A stretch of DNA of 64,000 nucleotides, taken from Opitutales bacterium. Its GTDB lineage: Bacteria > Verrucomicrobiota > Verrucomicrobiia > Opitutales > Opitutaceae. Of this stretch, positions 1-59,273 are shown piece by piece. The first letter of the stretch is position 1. The number at the start of each line of letters is the position of its first letter. The notes under the pieces were generated by a model. It searched no databases and was not told the origin of the DNA. It worked only from the letters and a program-made list of their open reading frames with translations. The position numbers were made by a program, and so were the translations under genes. Location of the stretch: assembly GCA_038231575.1 (NCBI GenBank), contig JBBRLB010000011.1, positions 1,488 to 65,487 of the forward strand, read 5' to 3'.

Positions 1-3000
1 GTAGATTGTAACTGATCGGCTGCTTCAACGCGAAGGTGAGCGGCACGGTCTCGCGCGCCGGGCTCGTGTAGTCGCCGCCCTTGGGGCGCAACGCCGACGC
101 CGTCTGCGCGATCGACGAATACTGGGGCCCGCGGTCGTTCAGGAGATTGTTGATGACGAGGTTGGCCTGGACCTCACGGCGATTCTTGAAGCGCCACGTG
201 TAGTTCAGTGTGCCGGTGACGATGTAATAGTCGTTCGGCGTGTAGACCGGCGTGTAGGCACTGACGGTGGGATCGTCGATGGCCGTCAGGGGATTCGCGG
301 GATTGACAATGGTATCGGAGCCACGCGAGCCGATGATTTGCTTGTCGCGCCAGCGCACGCCGAGGCCGCCGCGCACGCCTTTGAGCCGGCCAGACTGAAT
401 CGTGTAGTCGGCGAAGAGATTGAGCAGCGGCTGGTCTTGGCTGCGGCGCTTGCCCGAGACGACGTTCTGGCGGAAGGCGACGATGTTGTTGAAGGCATTG
501 GCGGCATTGGTCGCGTCCGGCGAACGCGTGTTGATCGGGATCGAGAGGTCAACACTCGCCACATTGTTCGCGTCGATCAACACGCCGGCGTCCTTCGCGA
601 TCTGCTGGAACAGCGGCATGTTCTTGTCGATGTAAGCCGACACATCGGGGTAGAGATTGGATTCGTAAACTTTCGGAAAACTGACGCTGCCGGTCAGGCG
701 AAACGCGCGCGACGGATTGTAGACCACCTCGACCTCGAAGCCGTTGCCCGAGCGGGTGCGGATGTCGCGATACTGCACCGGGAGATCACCGGCCCCGCGG
801 ATATTGCGGCCGACGGAGCTCTGATCGCCGACGACGTTGGCCTGATAGAGCGTGGTGAAGAAATTTGGGCCGTCCTGCGAGATCGCCCCATTGATTTCAC
901 TGGTCTGGTAGTAGGTGAAGTTGAGGTTGAGCCTGTTCTGGAACAGTTCCATCCGGAGCCCGTAGTCGGTGCCGCTGGAGACCGTCGGCTCCAGTTGGCG
1001 ACCGTCAATCCGCACGATGCCGCCGGGTGGATTGAAGGTTTCGGCGTAATTAATTGAGGGATTAAACCAGGTGGCGAAGTGCAGCACGGAGCCGACGGAG
1101 CGTGTCACCTGGGTGCCTTGGACGGGGAAGGGGTTGAAGTCGTCTTTGAAGCGATCGTTGGCGTAGAGCGGATCGCGATCGCCGTTGGGAGCGAGGCGCG
1201 GCCGGATGGCGGCTTCCTGGGGCGTGCCAATGGGCTTGCCGGCGGCGTCGCGCGTGCGGTAGGTGAGCGTCGCGTAGTCGGGGGGCGGGGAAGGACGCAT
1301 GATGCGGGTGAGGCCGTCCCAATTGAGCGGGTAGTCACCCTTGTCGATCTGCTGGACGGTGCGGAAAAGATACGAGTCCTTGCGCACGGCGCCAAGGATG
1401 ATGAGGCGGTTCTTGAAGAACTTCGCGTTCACGGAGCCGAGGAGATATTTGAAATTTGAGCGGTTGATCGACTCGGTGTCGCGCCGGGAAGTATCGACGG
1501 CCCAGATGGGCTGGATCGTCGTCGAGGTGTTGGTGTTGGGATCGAAATATTTGATTGGGCTGCCCGACGGGTCGGGGATCGGGCGGCTGAACTGGTTCCA
1601 GTAACGCCGGACGCGGACGTTTTGCGTGGCCGGGGTCGAGAGAAAGCCCCAAAGGCGGTGGTCGTTGCCCTGCGCAACGCTGAGGTAACGATAGTCGCTT
1701 TGATCTTCACCTTGGTTGATACCGCCAAGGGTGTTGAAGGCAAAGTTACCGAAGCGCGTGTCGAGCACGTAAGCGGCGGCGCCGCGGACGTTGTTATAGT
1801 CAAATTTCCGGTAGCCGCGCATGAGTTGGCCATCGCCGTAGGCTTGCTTGAAATTGGGATTCGGCGCCCCGCTGGGGAGCAGTTGGTTGATGTCGATGTA
1901 AGTGTCGTTGCTGCTGCGGTTCTGCTCGCCGTTGATGAAGGAGCGCGCGCGGTTGAAATCGCCGGCGACCTCGAAGTAAAAATCTCCGAGGCGCTGATTG
2001 AAGGTCACCTGAATGTCCTTGAAGCGTTGAGCCAAAATCGGTGCATCGGGCGAGATGGTGAACTCCTCGGAGGGCGGACGGAAAAAGGAGTTGGCGATCG
2101 CGGTGCCGAAGCGGTTGCCCGGAAGATCGACGGCGTGGAGAAACGTCGCGCCTGCGCTGGCGAAGGAGGGCAGGCTGCCCTGCACGAAGCCGGCAAGCGG
2201 CGTCGTGGTGCTGTTGCCGCCGGGGAGCGTGATGGGATCGTTCTGGTAATTCATGATTGCCGGCGAAGCGGCGCCAGGATCGAGCACAAAATAATTTGCG
2301 CCGCGGCGGCCAACGCCGAGGGCGTTGGCGTTGCCGGGCAGCGTCGTGGCGGCGGCGGGCGCATTGTAAACCGTGCGGCCATCCCAACCCGAGAGGCGGT
2401 CGTCGAGCGTGGTGAAGCCGGACTGGCGGGAGTTGACGCCATATTCACCCTCGACGCGAAGTTCGCCGTTGCGCCACGGGCGGTAGGTCGTCGTGAGCGT
2501 CGCGGCCTTGCGTTTGTCGAAGTCTTTTAACCGCCAGCCGCCGCTGTCGCCCCACACGGCGGACGCCCGCGCGGCGAACTTGTCGTTGAGTGGCTGGTTA
2601 ACATCGATCGTCGTGCGATAATTGCGCCACGAGCCGACGCTCAACTGCACGCTCTCAGCCGCCCGGTTGGTCTGTGCCCGCTTCGTCGTCGCGGAGCTGA
2701 CGCCGCTGAGCGAGCCGTTGCCGAATAGAATGGAGTTGGGACCGCGGCCGAAGTCGTAGCGCTCGAGGTTGTAGCTGTCGCCGTTGTTGAACTGCGGGAA
2801 GAAATTTCGCTGCGGCCGGCCCGCCCCAGTTCCTCGAATGGTGTAATTGATCGGCGCGGCGAAGAAGTTCTGCATGCCGTTGTCGACATTGAGGGTGCTG
2901 CTCGTGGCCCACTCGGCGGCGCTCTGGAGATCGGTCAGACCAAGGGCGTCAATAAACTCGCGCGTGATGACCGAATAGGCGACGGGAGTATCGCGGAGAT

Positions 3001-3220
3001 CGCCAGCGAGCCGACCGCCGGCGAGCGAGCTGGCGGCGGCGAAGCCCGTGTCCTTGTCTGCGTTCACCTCGAACGGGGTGAGGACGACGGCTTTGCTTGG
3101 CGCGGGCTGATCGTCGGGGCTCGCGACAGCGGGAGCACGGGCGACTTGGCCGCGGACGGTGGAGGTCAGGAGGAGTCCGGCGAGTAGCGCGGACACGCCG
3201 GTGGGGCAGCGGAGAGGCAT
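1..3220 (-). CDS. TonB-dependent outer-membrane receptor (partial; C-terminal end runs off the window)
   Basis: Absent from the ORF track because no stop lies in the window. The reverse frame opens at ATG 3220-3218 and reads MPLRCPTGVSALLAGLLLTSTVRGQ (signal peptide). It continues with TPFEVNADKDTGF, DLRDTPVAYSVITREFIDALGL and YNLERYDFGRGPNSILFGNGSLSGV, plug-domain motifs shared with the receptor at 27989-30748. The + ORFs 338-1057 and 1622-2530 look like antisense shadows. Confidence 0.85.
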   Translation of the reverse strand, partial: MPLRCPTGVSALLAGLLLTSTVRGQVARAPAVASPDDQPAPSKAVVLTPFEVNADKDTGFAAASSLAGGRLAGDLRDTPVAYSVITREFIDALGLTDLQSAAEWATSSTLNVDNGMQNFFAAPINYTIRGTGAGRPQRNFFPQFNNGDSYNLERYDFGRGPNSILFGNGSLSGVSSATTKRAQTNRAAESVQLSVGSWRNYRTTIDVNQPLNDKFAARASAVWGDSGGWRLKDFDKRKAATLTTTYRPWRNGELRVEGEYGVNSRQSGFTTLDDRLSGWDGRTVYNAPAAATTLPGNANALGVGRRGANYFVLDPGAASPAIMNYQNDPITLPGGNSTTTPLAGFVQGSLPSFASAGATFLHAVDLPGNRFGTAIANSFFRPPSEEFTISPDAPILAQRFKDIQVTFNQRLGDFYFEVAGDFNRARSFINGEQNRSSNDTYIDINQLLPSGAPNPNFKQAYGDGQLMRGYRKFDYNNVRGAAAYVLDTRFGNFAFNTLGGINQGEDQSDYRYLSVAQGNDHRLWGFLSTPATQNVRVRRYWNQFSRPIPDPSGSPIKYFDPNTNTSTTIQPIWAVDTSRRDTESINRSNFKYLLGSVNAKFFKNRLIILGAVRKDSYLFRTVQQIDKGDYPLNWDGLTRIMRPSPPPDYATLTYRTRDAAGKPIGTPQEAAIRPRLAPNGDRDPLYANDRFKDDFNPFPVQGTQVTRSVGSVLHFATWFNPSINYAETFNPPGGIVRIDGRQLEPTVSSGTDYGLRMELFQNRLNLNFTYYQTSEINGAISQDGPNFFTTLYQANVVGDQSSVGRNIRGAGDLPVQYRDIRTRSGNGFEVEVVYNPSRAFRLTGSVSFPKVYESNLYPDVSAYIDKNMPLFQQIAKDAGVLIDANNVASVDLSIPINTRSPDATNAANAFNNIVAFRQNVVSGKRRSQDQPLLNLFADYTIQSGRLKGVRGGLGVRWRDKQIIGSRGSDTIVNPANPLTAIDDPTVSAYTPVYTPNDYYIVTGTLNYTWRFKNRREVQANLVINNLLNDRGPQYSSIAQTASALRPKGGDYTSPARETVPLTFALKQPISYNL

Positions 3221-3412
3221 CGATGGGGTTGGGTTGTCTCCGCGCGTGGCGTGAGCGGGTGGGCCCGCGGGCAGTTCCGGAGGATTGGCGGAAAGGAGTC
3301 GCCGGTCGCGGAAGAAGCAAGCGCAGATTTCCGCGGTGGATCGACGGTCGCGCGATCGTAAATTCAGGATGGACACGCGGTCGGGGTCCGCTTTTTCTCC
3401 GCCTGCGTTCCC

Positions 3413-3490
3413 ATGATTATTTCCACCGCCAACTCGATTGCGATTCGCAGCATTATTAGCTGCGCGCCCGGGCGCGGAGAAATGGCGTGA
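3413..3490 (+). CDS. Ile-rich leader peptide (25 aa, MIISTANSIAIRSIISCAPGRGEMA), putative attenuator ORF for cimA
   Basis: ATG at 3413, TGA at 3488-3490. Six Ile in the first 15 codons, all ATT, while the surrounding genes use ATC. It lies between a divergent promoter region and a terminator that abuts cimA. Confidence 0.6.
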   Translation: MIISTANSIAIRSIISCAPGRGEMA

Positions 3491-3518
3491 GTTCCTGACT
3501 AAACGCGATTCTCTCTGA

Positions 3519-3552
3519 CCCCGGGCCTCACCGCCCGGGGTTTTGTTTTTTC
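3519..3552 (+). terminator. Intrinsic terminator/attenuator hairpin immediately upstream of cimA
   Basis: CCCCGGGC (3519-3526), loop CTCACC, GCCCGGGG (3533-3540), then TTTTGTTTTTT. The T-run ends 6 nt before the cimA ATG at 3558. Confidence 0.75.
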
Positions 3553-3557
3553 CGACC

Positions 3558-5123
3558 ATGAAAAACTCCAACGTCAAAATCTACGACACCACGCTCCGCG
3601 ACGGCACGCAGGGCGAGGGCATCAGCTTTTCTGTCACCGACAAGCTCCTGATCGCGGAGAAGCTCGACCAGTTTGGCGTGGACTACATCGAGGGCGGCTT
3701 TCCCGGCTCCAACCCGCGCGACATCACCTTTTTCGCCGAGGCAAAGAAGCTGAAACTGAAGCACGCGAAACTCGCGGCCTTCGGCGCCACGCGCCGCGCC
3801 GGCGTGAAGCCCGCGGACGACGCGCAACTCCGCACCCTCCTCGACAGCGGCATGCCCGTGCTGACCATCGTCGGGAAAACGTGGACGCTCCACGTCACCG
3901 AAATCCTCAAGACCACGCTCGAGGAAAACCTCGCCATGATCGAGGACTCCACGCGCCACCTCGTCGCGCACGGCCGCGAAGTGATCTACGACGCCGAGCA
4001 TTACTTCGACGGCTACAAGTCTGATCCGGATTACGCGCTGAAGACCCTCGCGGCCGCGTTGCGCGGCGGGGCCAACAATCTTTCCCTCTGCGACACGAAT
4101 GGCGGCACGCTCGTCGACGAGTTCAAAGACATCGTCGCGCGCGCCGTGCAGGAATTCGGCGGCGACCACGTGGGCGTGCATTGCCACAACGACAGCGGCG
4201 TCGGCGTGGCGCTTTCCCTCGCGGGCATCACGGCCGGCGCGACGCTGGTGCAGGGCACGACGAACGGTTATGGAGAGCGTGTCGGCAACGCAAACCTCAC
4301 GACGATTCTCCCGAATCTGTTCTTGAAGATGGGCCGCACCGCGCGTTGTGCGTCAAATCTCGCGCAGCTCCGCGACCTCTCGATTTTCTTCGACGAGCTG
4401 GCAAACCTCCGGCCCGATCCGAAGGCGCCGTTCGTGGGGCAGTCGGCCTTCGCGCACAAGGGCGGGCTGCACGCCAACGCCGCGCAGAAGGTCGCGCGCA
4501 GTTACGAACACATCGACCCGGCGCTCGTCGGCAATCGCACGCGCGTGCTCGTTTCCGATATGGCCGGCCGCAGCAGCCTCGCGCTCAAGGCGAAGGAGAT
4601 GGGCGTCGCGCTCGACGAAAAACACCCCGCGATGAAGGATCTGATCGAGGAATTGAAGGAGCGCGAATTTCGCGGCTACGAATACGAGGCGGCGGATGCT
4701 TCGTTCAAGCTGCTCGTCGCAAAACATCTCGCGCAGCGGCAAACGTTTTTCGAGGTCGAGAGCTATCGCGTGATCATCGAGCGCCACGGTGGAGATCTTT
4801 TGTCCGAGGCGACGGTGAAGCTCAAAGTGAATGGCGAATCCGTCCACACCGTCGCTGAGGACACCGGCCCGATTGGCGCGCTCGACAAAGCGCTGCGCCT
4901 CGCGCTGGAAAAGACTTATCCGCAACTCCGCACGATGACGCTGCGCGACTACAAAGTCCGCATTCTCGAGGGCAATCAGAGTGCAAGTTCGCGCACACGG
5001 GTGCTGATTGAAAGCGGCGACGGCGACCGCATCTGGGGCACCGTCGGCGTGAGCGAAAACATCATCGATGCGAGTTGGGAAGCCCTCCGAGAATCGGCGG
5101 AGTTCAAACTCTCGCTCGGGTAA
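3558..5123 (+). CDS. cimA: Citramalate synthase (LeuA/CimA family, about 520 aa form)
   Basis: MKNSNVKIYDTTLRDGTQGEGISFSVTDKLLIAEKLDQFGVDYIEGGFPGSNPRD. HxH motif (VHCHND). C-terminal LeuA-type regulatory domain. The track start at 3543 is a TTG inside the terminator T-run, so ATG 3558 is preferred. Confidence 0.85.
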   Translation: MKNSNVKIYDTTLRDGTQGEGISFSVTDKLLIAEKLDQFGVDYIEGGFPGSNPRDITFFAEAKKLKLKHAKLAAFGATRRAGVKPADDAQLRTLLDSGMPVLTIVGKTWTLHVTEILKTTLEENLAMIEDSTRHLVAHGREVIYDAEHYFDGYKSDPDYALKTLAAALRGGANNLSLCDTNGGTLVDEFKDIVARAVQEFGGDHVGVHCHNDSGVGVALSLAGITAGATLVQGTTNGYGERVGNANLTTILPNLFLKMGRTARCASNLAQLRDLSIFFDELANLRPDPKAPFVGQSAFAHKGGLHANAAQKVARSYEHIDPALVGNRTRVLVSDMAGRSSLALKAKEMGVALDEKHPAMKDLIEELKEREFRGYEYEAADASFKLLVAKHLAQRQTFFEVESYRVIIERHGGDLLSEATVKLKVNGESVHTVAEDTGPIGALDKALRLALEKTYPQLRTMTLRDYKVRILEGNQSASSRTRVLIESGDGDRIWGTVGVSENIIDASWEALRESAEFKLSLG

Positions 5124-24372: not shown

Positions 24373-24508
24373 AAATTATGGGGGTGGGCGTGCGTCACTC
24401 GCTCTTTCCCGGCGGCACACGCTTGGACGCGCTCGCTTTCGCGGGCGGTGTGCTTCCCGACGCCACTCTCCGCGGCATGCGGAGGTTTCGGTCTCATGGC
24501 GGGACCGT

Positions 24509-24537
24509 CCTGACCGTTGCCGGTCGGGATTTTTTTG
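24509..24537 (+). terminator. Terminator-like hairpin (plus orientation) inside a gene-free gap
   Basis: CCTGACCG, loop TTGC, CGGTCGGG (one G-U pair), followed by ATTTTTTTG. Confidence 0.55.
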
Positions 24538-25379
24538 AGTGAGGCCTCTGCGCCCGGTTCGGACACTCCCTGCCGGGAGCGGCGCGCCGGACGTGGTGGG
24601 GACACGTCTGCAATACCAATCTTCGCGTCCTCACCCTTGCCACGGGGACGGCACCAGCTTTTGGCCGGCCGTTGGCCCCGCGTTACGGGTCTGACCTCTT
24701 ACCTCTCAGGTTGCTTTCGCTCTTGCAGCGAGGTGACGTGTTTTTGCACGCCGCCTCATTGAGGAGGTTTGACGAACTTTGCCAGGTTCGCTCGCTCCCC
24801 GCCGCCGCGCTGCCTTTACGCGCCCGATCCGAGTGACCGGATTGGGCCTTTTGGCGGGGTAGGCCCGCCAGACAACGCGACTGCGTTCTGGTCTGCGCAG
24901 TAGCAACCGAAACCCTCTGGGTAACTGCGTTGGCGCACGGGTCGAAACGCCCCGTGGGCCTGACTCGGCTCGCATGCGGTTTCTAATCGCCGCTTGCCGC
25001 TCAGTTCACTTCTTCGTGGACTTGCCTGACCGAACACGACTTCGGCCAGAGGAACTGGTGAGATATGCCTGCCATACCGCTAACGCGGTGTGGAGGGGGA
25101 GCCGGCACCAGCTGCCGTCACCCTTTCCCCGGTCGCCCGGGATTATCCCAGTCGTGCTCTCGGCGATTTTTTTCAGACCGCCGCGCTGCGACTGTTCTAT
25201 CAAGGAACGTTTTGGACGGTGCGCACAGAATTTGAAAAATGAAGCCTAGGTTCTTCACATTCGGTGCACCGTCGAAATCGGTGAATAAGTTGGGAGCAAT
25301 CTGGCTCACCGGTTATTCACCGGGCTTGCCACGACGGGAAATGACCGGACGCTCTGCCGCTCGCCAGATTGGAAATAAC

Positions 25380-57886: not shown

Positions 57887-58267
57887 ATGATTACTCAAAA
57901 GATTAAAGAACTCGCAGCGGCCAAAGCAAAACTCGCAGGCCTCGAAAAAACCATCGCGGCGGAGTTGAACCAGGAACTGGCGGCGTTGCCTGCGCAGTTT
58001 GGGTTCACGGACGTGAAATCCTTTATCCAGGCGGTGAAAGCCGCCGCCGGTAGCAAGCGCGGCCCGAAAGCGAAAGCGGCCAAGCCCGCCAAGGGCGGCA
58101 AGAAGCGCCGCACGCGCGCCGTCATCACCGACGCCATGCGCGCGCAGGTGAAGAAGCTGGTCGAGGCCGGGAAGACCGGGGGCGAGATCGCGAAGGCCGT
58201 CGGCGTTTCCCTGCCGAGTGTGCACAACATCAAGAAGGCCCTCGGCCTCGTGAAGAAGAAGAAGTAA
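57887..58267 (+). CDS. Small basic protein: N-terminal coiled coil, Lys/Arg-rich linker, C-terminal helix-turn-helix
   Basis: ITQKIKELAAAKAKLAGLEKTIAAELNQEL ... SKRGPKAKAAKPAKGGKKRRTRA ... GGEIAKAVGVSLPSVHNIKK. Followed by a strong terminator. Confidence 0.7.
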   Translation: MITQKIKELAAAKAKLAGLEKTIAAELNQELAALPAQFGFTDVKSFIQAVKAAAGSKRGPKAKAAKPAKGGKKRRTRAVITDAMRAQVKKLVEAGKTGGEIAKAVGVSLPSVHNIKKALGLVKKKK

Positions 58268-58294
58268 GCGGAGATTTTTACCCGCGCACTTTCG

Positions 58295-58320
58295 GCCCCG
58301 TTTCGACGGGGCTTTTTTGT
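58295..58320 (+). terminator. Intrinsic terminator
   Basis: GCCCCG, loop TTTCGA, CGGGGC, then TTTTTTG. Confidence 0.85.
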
Positions 58321-58358: not shown

Positions 58359-59273
58359 ATGTCCGCCGCATTCATCCAGGCCAACACCAACGGCCGCCTC
58401 CATCCCGCGACCGAGCCGTCGATTTCCCCGCTCAACCGCGGCTTCCTTTATGGCGACGCCATCTACGAAGTGTGGCGCACCTACCAGGGCGTGATTTTCA
58501 CGTGGGAGGAGCACTGGGCGCGGTTGTTCCGCTCGGCGAAGTCGCTCTATATGGATCTGCCGTTCACCCCCGCGCAGATGTTGCCGGAGATCCGGAAGAC
58601 GGTCGCGGCGTATCGCGAGAAAACGAGCGACGCGGGCGAACTTTATATTCGCATCCAGATCACGCGCGGCGCCGGCGCGATCGGGCTTGATCCTGCGCTC
58701 GCGGATCGGCCGGACTTTGTGTTGCTCGTGCAGGCATGCCCGACCATGGCCGACGAAAAAATCCGTGCGGGGATGAAGCTCTCGCTCGCGACCGGCCTCC
58801 GGCGCAATCCGATCGACGCGCTCAATCCGGCGTGGAAGACCGGCAACTATCTCAACAACGTGCTCTGCCTCCGGGAGGCGCGCGCGCGCGGCGCCGACGA
58901 GGTCGTGATGTTGAATCTCGCCGGTGAAGTGACCGAGTCGGCCGTGTCGAACATCGCCTTCATCAGCGGTGGCATCCTGATCACCCCGCCGCTCTCGGCG
59001 GGAATTCTCGGCGGCATCACGCGCGATCTCGTGCTCACGAAAATCGCTGCGACCGCGCAGGTGCCGGTGCGTGAGGCCGCGGTGAAGCCGGAGGAATTCG
59101 CGTCGATGGACGAGGGTTTCCTGCTGTCTTCCACCAAGGACATCGCGCCGATCGCCAGCATCGACGGCGTGAAGTTCAAAGTCGGCGCGGACACGATCGC
59201 GATGAAGCTGAAGGCGGCGTTTGCGGACTACATGACGTCCTACGCGGCTTCGCACCCGGAGCTGAAAGCATAG
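58359..59273 (+). CDS. Class IV aminotransferase (branched-chain amino acid / D-amino acid aminotransferase family)
   Basis: LNRGFLYGDAIYEVWRTY ... YIRIQITRG ... KTGNYLNNVLCLREARARGADEVVMLN ... GITR. Confidence 0.85.
   Translation: MSAAFIQANTNGRLHPATEPSISPLNRGFLYGDAIYEVWRTYQGVIFTWEEHWARLFRSAKSLYMDLPFTPAQMLPEIRKTVAAYREKTSDAGELYIRIQITRGAGAIGLDPALADRPDFVLLVQACPTMADEKIRAGMKLSLATGLRRNPIDALNPAWKTGNYLNNVLCLREARARGADEVVMLNLAGEVTESAVSNIAFISGGILITPPLSAGILGGITRDLVLTKIAATAQVPVREAAVKPEEFASMDEGFLLSSTKDIAPIASIDGVKFKVGADTIAMKLKAAFADYMTSYAASHPELKA

Follow-up and report, generated by a model that had tools for sequence, protein, structure and literature searches.

Transcription attenuation by leader peptides is a textbook mechanism. 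In the enterobacterial ilvGMEDA, ilvBN, thr, leu and trp systems, a short open reading frame (ORF) rich in codons for the regulatory amino acid is followed by a terminator ahead of the first structural gene. The leader RNA has four regions that pair either as 1:2 and 3:4 or as 2:3, and the stop codon sits where a terminating ribosome covers region 2. Here we describe an element with the same organization directly upstream of cimA, the gene for (R)-citramalate synthase, in a 64,000-nt stretch of an Opitutales genome (Verrucomicrobiota; Opitutaceae; assembly GCA_038231575.1, contig JBBRLB010000011.1, positions 1,488 to 65,487), hereafter the window, whose numbering is used throughout. Based on comparative sequence analysis and RNA fold modelling, we consider it likely that this element is a functional, isoleucine-responsive, ribosome-mediated transcription attenuator. 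The mechanism itself opens no new principle; new are its target, cimA, and its occurrence in Verrucomicrobiota.

The Opitutaceae element shares the features listed above with the enterobacterial attenuators, but it has no sequence or covariance-model similarity to them. In contrast to the multivalent ilvGMEDA leader, the Opitutaceae leader would sense isoleucine only, and valine and leucine are depleted. CimA commits pyruvate and acetyl-CoA to a branch that leads only to isoleucine, and thus an isoleucine-only leader fits this gene. Also unlike the enterobacterial operons, the leader would have only cimA under its control, a gene that belongs to the threonine-independent route, which is absent from E. 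coli. Both the leader ORF and cimA lack Shine-Dalgarno (SD) sequences, the 5' untranslated region (UTR) is probably only ~10 nt long, and the leader reverses the codon bias of the genome in favor of AUU. Use of a minor isoleucine codon has a parallel in the E. coli leu leader, which uses minor CUA codons.

T-boxes tie a similar target gene to the charging of tRNA-Ile via a choice between terminator and antiterminator. Isoleucine T-boxes are reportedly found before cimA-like leuA paralogues in Desulfuromonadales, and on that account RNA-level control of cimA by isoleucine would not be conceptually new. Unlike the Opitutaceae leader, in which no T-box is detectable, T-boxes bind the tRNA directly, without translation. 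A search of the region 2800-4000 against Rfam at E<=10 returned no leader, T-box (RF00230) or riboswitch, only sub-threshold hits to small RNA (sRNA) families that were driven by the terminator hairpin. No Rfam 15 family reached its gathering score in 17 loci with leaders, nor did any at cimA in the window or, for families of these kinds, anywhere in the whole window. By covariance model, the element cannot be assigned to any curated Rfam leader family (Leu, Thr, His, Trp or others). The original prediction for this locus was aware of no account of leader-peptide control for cimA or for this phylum; likewise, full-text literature searches turned up no paper that describes such a peptide ahead of cimA or in Verrucomicrobia. 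Leader-peptide attenuation would thus reach a new phylum and a new pathway entry point, judged against Rfam 15 and the searchable literature.

In GC-rich genomes, the actinobacterial ilvB leaders provide another point of comparison: short ORFs with runs of Ile, Val and Leu codons lie beside a terminator hairpin (Seliverstov et al., 2005; PMC1262725). That study covers ilvB and leuA, not cimA. Its leader ORFs overlap the terminator, no clear antiterminator was found, and it reports that changing the regulatory codons of S. coelicolor ilvB made no difference. Like these leaders, the Opitutaceae element has an isoleucine-bearing short ORF next to a terminator, upstream of a gene for branched-chain amino acid synthesis and in a GC-rich background, but its ORF, antiterminator and terminator are well separated.

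Leader ORF, terminator and cimA

The leader ORF (3413-3490, plus strand) starts with ATG at 3413, ends with TGA at 3488-3490 and encodes a 25-codon peptide, MIISTANSIAIRSIISCAPGRGEMA. As originally predicted, it contains six isoleucine codons, all of them ATT (3416-3421, 3437-3439, 3443-3445 and 3452-3457). Thus, a short 5' ORF rich in the codon for the product of the downstream pathway is present (6 of 25 codons), and cimA is isoleucine-specific. Across the 34 long ORFs of the window, isoleucine makes up 4.5% of codons, encoded by 582 ATC (79%), 150 ATT (20%) and 9 ATA; cimA itself uses 18 ATC and 5 ATT (n=23). The earlier statement that every nearby isoleucine codon is ATC is therefore too strong. 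At these frequencies, the chance of at least six isoleucines in 24 codons is ~5e-4, and that of six out of six being ATT is ~7e-5. No other ATG-initiated ORF of 15-40 codons has a higher isoleucine density (165 ORFs, six frames, whole window). The motif GCCCGGGC is at 3466-3473, where it had been reported, although it covers leader codons 18-21 rather than 18-20.

An intrinsic terminator is predicted at 3517-3551 (plus strand; -21 kcal/mol). It has a 10-bp stem (3517-3526/3533-3542), the loop CUCACC and the tract UUUUGUUUUUU. The hairpin described originally, CCCCGGGC/GCCCGGGG at 3519-3540 and 28 nt past the leader stop, is its core; with the stem grown to ten pairs, the distance from the stop is 26 nt. 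The T-run (3541-3551) has 10 T in 11 nt and, as noted before, stops 6 nt short of the cimA ATG at 3558. This is among the three strongest combinations of hairpin and T-run in the window. The upstream gene is divergent, and thus this plus-strand terminator cannot end an upstream gene; it separates the leader ORF from the structural gene. Similar sites follow other gene ends in the window (e.g., 58294-58313 after the ORF at 57887-58267), and we therefore conclude that intrinsic termination is in use in this genome.

The putatively regulated gene, cimA (3558-5123, plus strand), matches TIGR00977 with 692.7 bits, relative to an equivalog cutoff of 450 bits, and all isopropylmalate and homocitrate synthase models score far below their own cutoffs. 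Judging from these scores, the gene is a bona fide citramalate synthase, as had been proposed. The closest CimA match is 93% identical and comes from 'Opitutus sp. Baikal-deep-G227'. An isoleucine-specific leader provides independent regulatory evidence that this LeuA-family enzyme functions as a citramalate synthase in a threonine-independent isoleucine route in Opitutaceae. If the leader is functional, it would also prove, at the level of the regulon, that LeuA-family enzymes of this kind work in isoleucine synthesis.

Conservation in Opitutaceae and leaders in other lineages

Scans for CimA in genome and metagenome collections returned 160 loci, identified here by L numbers. The original prediction would have been undermined if orthologous leaders had no isoleucine-rich mini-ORF. 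A homologous leader was found directly upstream of cimA in 12 further loci (L001, L002, L008, L013, L020, L021, L081, L082, L090, L091, L092 and L105), the CimA proteins of which are 74-93% identical to that of the window. Their leader peptides are divergent (e.g., MTTAPAIIRAISSIIGCAPGRGEMA, MSPLPSISIAIIIELQPGSGDSA, MLLRPDIMIPIIGTIIIPCRRSGRGEMA and MSAIRANLISISSSIIITGRGPGHGNGA), and all homologous leaders have 22-29 codons, 5-7 isoleucines and a terminator, the stem of which is paired in 92% of cells across the 13 aligned sequences. The stop codon varies between TGA, TAA and TAG, and its position is fixed relative to the downstream RNA elements. Alignment gaps within the leader ORF are 3, 3, 6, 9 and 21 nt long; after the stop codon, they are of arbitrary length. 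An ORF with regulatory codons and a coding signature is thus present in all 13 loci.

In the 13 pooled leaders, 72 of 325 residues are isoleucine (22%, compared with a background of 4.6%; 4.8-fold), and 60 of the 72 codons are ATT. Valine and leucine are at 0.08-fold and 0.26-fold of background. Serine is 2.5-fold enriched; as read by eye, its AGC and UCG codons make stems that flank the AUU run. Selection appears to act on isoleucine content, not on peptide sequence. The conserved part of the peptide is the C-terminal (A)PG(R/H)G..A, which overlaps RNA region 2. A covariance model of the element (R1) found exactly 13 copies in 57 sources, one of them in the window and all upstream of cimA.

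These results bear on three other readings. The mini-ORF could be a separate small-protein gene, or part of an untranslated sRNA, with its own terminator. Expression of cimA would then stem from constitutive leak-through or a different start, and isoleucine would not be sensed. Conservation of the ORF, its start, stop and terminator, and of the C-terminal motif would fit a small gene, and the sub-threshold sRNA-family hits would fit an sRNA, although these are due solely to the terminator hairpin. We regard this reading as improbable: beyond isoleucine content and the stretch overlapping region 2 the peptide is unconserved, the element occurs upstream of cimA only, non-homologous ORFs with isoleucine runs occupy the same place in other phyla (see below), and the U-tract, 6 nt from the cimA ATG, leaves no room for another promoter.

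A switch controlled by a ligand, a tRNA or a protein (a riboswitch, T-box or RNA-binding protein), in which the ORF is incidental, would be in keeping with the alternative terminator and antiterminator folds described below. It is very improbable, given the negative Rfam searches, the shortness of the RNA (~140 nt) and its lack of a conserved unpaired core, and it would leave the conserved frame, the turnover of the stop codon at a fixed site and the isoleucine enrichment unexplained. Finally, an isoleucine-rich ORF and a hairpin might be paired by chance in an intergenic region, and in a GC-rich genome palindromic CCCGGG motifs do pair readily. The two single-sequence probabilities given above, the 13 conserved loci and the recurrence in other lineages make this hardly credible, and conservation effectively refutes it.

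We return to the attenuator. Its leader is absent from about two thirds of the related Opitutaceae cimA loci, which counts against it. The leader is evidently dispensable, with repeated loss or replacement in the family.

Leaderless Opitutaceae cimA genes (L003-L007, L009-L012 and L014-L017) have in common AAAAGCTCCCTTGCCAGC / AAAAGCUCCCUUGCCAGC, ~45 nt (about 30-60) before the ATG. An AA(A/G)YNT-like hexamer follows ~17 nt past AAAAGCTCCCTTGCCAGC, about 10-15 nt before the cimA ATG. The shared motif is probably a promoter with a very short or absent 5' UTR.

Leaders in other lineages were surveyed by anchoring on terminators, as an earlier null for isoleucine-rich ORFs was contaminated by C-terminal tails (ACT domains, aspartate kinase). 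Among 153 loci with at least 200 nt of upstream sequence, 39 carry a terminator-like site in the 260 nt ahead of cimA, and in 30 of these 39, the Opitutaceae family included, a mini-ORF with an isoleucine run stops 17-35 nt ahead of the terminator stem. At least four leaders with terminators that are not homologous to that of Opitutaceae precede cimA elsewhere. They include MTH(T/I)IEIIGIIIGQGGPGPMP in an Omnitrophota metagenome-assembled genome (MAG; L045:2804-2927) and an unclassified MAG (L075:2801-2924), MKPDQTGKIHIVIISAAGIRITLL... in a Myxococcota MAG (L053:1659-1824), and MNRIFQNIIGIIRVTGIIIISLLLLLL..., which also has a run of six leucines, in two metagenome contigs of unassigned lineage (L138/L139). 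These leaders have strong terminators and sit about 180 to 35 nt ahead of cimA.

Also present is a 13-codon Nonomuraea mini-ORF, MFYGLLII(G/S)RRAG (CTG CTC ATT ATC), conserved about 60-130 nt upstream of cimA in 13 loci (L054, L061, L062, L065, L066, L069-L072, L074 and L078-L080). A hairpin encloses its stop codon, and the terminator AGACCTCTCAC-GTCC-GTGAGGGGTCT-TTTT follows 21-22 nt past the stop. No clear antiterminator was seen in the Nonomuraea cimA leaders. This looks like an actinobacterial-type leader ahead of a cimA homologue.

The leaders outside Opitutaceae have unrelated terminators and mixed ATA, ATC and ATT codons. Therefore, the recurring feature is the isoleucine codons, not an AUU RNA motif. 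Unrelated isoleucine leaders before cimA in several phyla suggest repeated evolution of the same solution. On balance, we favor the view that isoleucine-only cimA attenuators form an undescribed, probably polyphyletic class, with an Opitutaceae family and unrelated Omnitrophota-like, Myxococcota and Nonomuraea versions; the leader ORF of the Opitutaceae family would be nearly leaderless, SD-less and biased to the wobble-read AUU.

In many other phyla (L030, L040, L041, L044, L049, L057, L151 and others), cimA directly follows the C-terminus of an aspartate kinase-like ACT-domain protein (...INIEMISTSEIKISC...). This suggests a conserved ask-cimA gene pair.

Alternative folds and proposed mechanism

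The original prediction had leader GCCCGGG pairing alternatively with the 5' arm of the terminator. RNAalifold, given the 13 sequences minus the 3' arm in an unaided alignment, returns this helix between leader CCCGGG and the 5' arm. The predicted antiterminator (2:3; 3466-3526, plus strand) is larger than first proposed: 3466-3472 pairs with 3520-3526 and 3475-3483 with 3508-3517, enclosing the leader stop codon. In addition, there is a 1:2 protector fold (3412-3487, plus strand), a long imperfect hairpin in which 3412-3436 pairs with 3465-3487 (-31.6 kcal/mol). It is the minimum free energy (MFE) structure of the nascent RNA as far as the leader stop, and is also part of the full-leader MFE; in the full-length MFE of most relatives, region 2 is likewise paired upstream. 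The tip of the 1:2 fold is a small hairpin, CGCAGC-AUUAUUA-GCUGCG (3446-3464, plus strand), the loop of which consists of isoleucine codons 14-15. It may possibly act as a pause hairpin for RNA polymerase. Equivalents with other stems were seen by eye in L013 (GCGG/CCGC), L020 (GGCA/UGCC) and L105 (GCUCG/CGGAGC), each a single event.

When the terminator 3' arm is left out, the MFE structure is the antiterminator, at -46.6 kcal/mol compared with -36.1 kcal/mol if the 5' arm is kept free. For the complete leader, the terminator plus 1:2 is optimal at -57.6 kcal/mol, and the best fold with the antiterminator reaches -51.4 kcal/mol. In the trp paradigm the energies rank in the same way, and 2:3 serves as a kinetic block. 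We also folded the leader with a 30-nt ribosome footprint masked and a chosen codon in the A site. The antiterminator forms (6-7 of 7 outer pairs) when the chosen codon is isoleucine 9, 11, 14 or 15; when the stop codon is chosen instead, the antiterminator is blocked and the terminator 5' arm is free. By thermodynamic prediction only, an exclusive antiterminator is thus permitted by a stalled ribosome and prevented by a terminating one, and the comparison of folds suggested originally comes out as the attenuation model requires.

The same three-stage behavior is predicted for the relatives. The full-leader MFE contains the terminator plus 1:2 in all 12 Opitutaceae-type leaders tested; once the 3' arm is removed, the antiterminator becomes the MFE structure in 10 of them. 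Spacing is similar throughout: 7-11 nt from the last isoleucine run to the start of region 2, 11-14 nt from the end of region 2 to the stop codon, and 24-30 nt from the stop codon to the terminator arm. Of the helix registers compared, the proposed one clearly comes out on top: 76% of its cells are paired, against at most 54% in slid registers. The 2:3 duplex of the window leader beats 300 of 300 shuffles. One compensated change was found by eye, in L021 (leader GCUCGGGG with arm CCUUGAGC), and is a single event.

Several observations weigh against the attenuator. Two leaders, those of L008 and L092, lack the antiterminator in the MFE structure computed with the 3' arm left out. Several relatives have a 2:3 duplex that 8-30% of shuffled leaders match or exceed, since palindromic motifs of the CCCGGG type are common in GC-rich sequence. 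The terminator and 2:3 helices are largely invariant in sequence across relatives, and the covariation score was reached by 41-122 of 500 shuffles, which is not significant in either the MAFFT or the model-fitted alignment. Only 8 nt separate isoleucine 15 from region 2, so that a ribosome stalled there may clip the first base pair. The leader ORF has no SD sequence (nor has cimA). A sigma-70 consensus scan found no promoter, and the promoter and transcription start site are placed solely by the conserved motif described next.

Across the 13 loci, the upstream regions share T(G/C)GACA, a 16-nt spacer and T(T/A)(T/C)nnT, with an A-rich tract ahead in most relatives. In the window, the -35-like hexamer is TGGACA (3370-3375, plus strand), at which T(G/C)GACA is almost invariant in the 13 aligned regions, and the -10-like hexamer is TTTTTC (3392-3397, plus strand), 16 nt further on, the first T of which (3392) is invariant. 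The -10-like position is T-rich and not TATAAT-like in the window group, and is TA(T/C)GGT in the L090 group. These forms may reflect promoter preferences of Opitutaceae. The motif is probably the promoter of the leader, and its position implies that the 5' UTR preceding the leader ATG is only about 7-10 nt long.

We propose that transcription starts, probably, ~10 nt before the leader ATG. If no ribosome is present, the leader ORF is predicted to fold as 1:2, leaving the 5' arm free, and 3:4 would form and the transcript end at the U-tract. If isoleucine is abundant, the masked folds suggest that the ribosome would reach the UGA at 3488, inside the antiterminator, and block region 2, resulting in termination. 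If isoleucine is scarce, they suggest that the ribosome would stall on the AUU codons at 3437-3457, open 1:2 and free 3466-3483. The freed segment could pair with 3508-3526 and sequester the terminator 5' arm, and RNA polymerase would enter cimA. AUU is read via G:U wobble by the same tRNA as AUC. A leader that uses AUU alone would respond more sharply, and its hairpin loop would stay unpaired. What the analysis shows are the sequence features, their conservation and the predicted alternative folds; translation of the leader, its transcription start and its response to isoleucine are inferred.

Alternatively, the leader might sense isoleucine and act mainly on cimA translation or mRNA stability rather than by premature termination, with the U-tract as a possible S1-binding enhancer. 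The hairpin ends (3542) 16 nt from the SD-less cimA ATG, and the U-rich tract is directly upstream. However, a GC stem of 10 bp with 10 T in the ensuing 11-nt tract is a canonical intrinsic terminator, and occlusion of the start site is not conserved, as the terminator is 26-77 nt from cimA in L021, L045/L075 and L090-L105. We consider this reading quite improbable.

If functional, the attenuator would be direct evidence of transcription-translation coupling in Verrucomicrobiota that is tight enough to permit attenuation, and it would imply efficient SD-less initiation in this phylum. At about 190 nt, it is a compact regulatory part that is readily testable.

Gene neighborhood and other features of the window

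The upstream neighbor, a divergent ORF (2-3220, minus strand) at least 1073 codons long, has a TonB-dependent-receptor Plug domain and is open past the left edge of the window. This longer ORF replaces a minus-strand ORF at 2949-3320 that had been taken as the neighbor. Judging from the gene arrangement, the interval 3221-3557 is a divergent promoter region.

Further downstream, a lysine-rich ORF of 126 aa (57887-58267, plus strand) with its own terminator (58294-58313, plus strand) precedes a class IV aminotransferase (about 58360-59273, plus strand; PF01063, 178 bits) that is possibly IlvE-like. The hairpin at 58294-58313 was considered as a second attenuator, ahead of the aminotransferase, and was rejected as the gene-end terminator of the lysine-rich ORF.

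A full-length MISL RNA (RF03079) is encoded at 24387-25148 on the minus strand (514 bits; gathering score 274.6). Directly after it is the strongest terminator-like hairpin of the window (24373-24344, minus strand; -25.3 kcal/mol).

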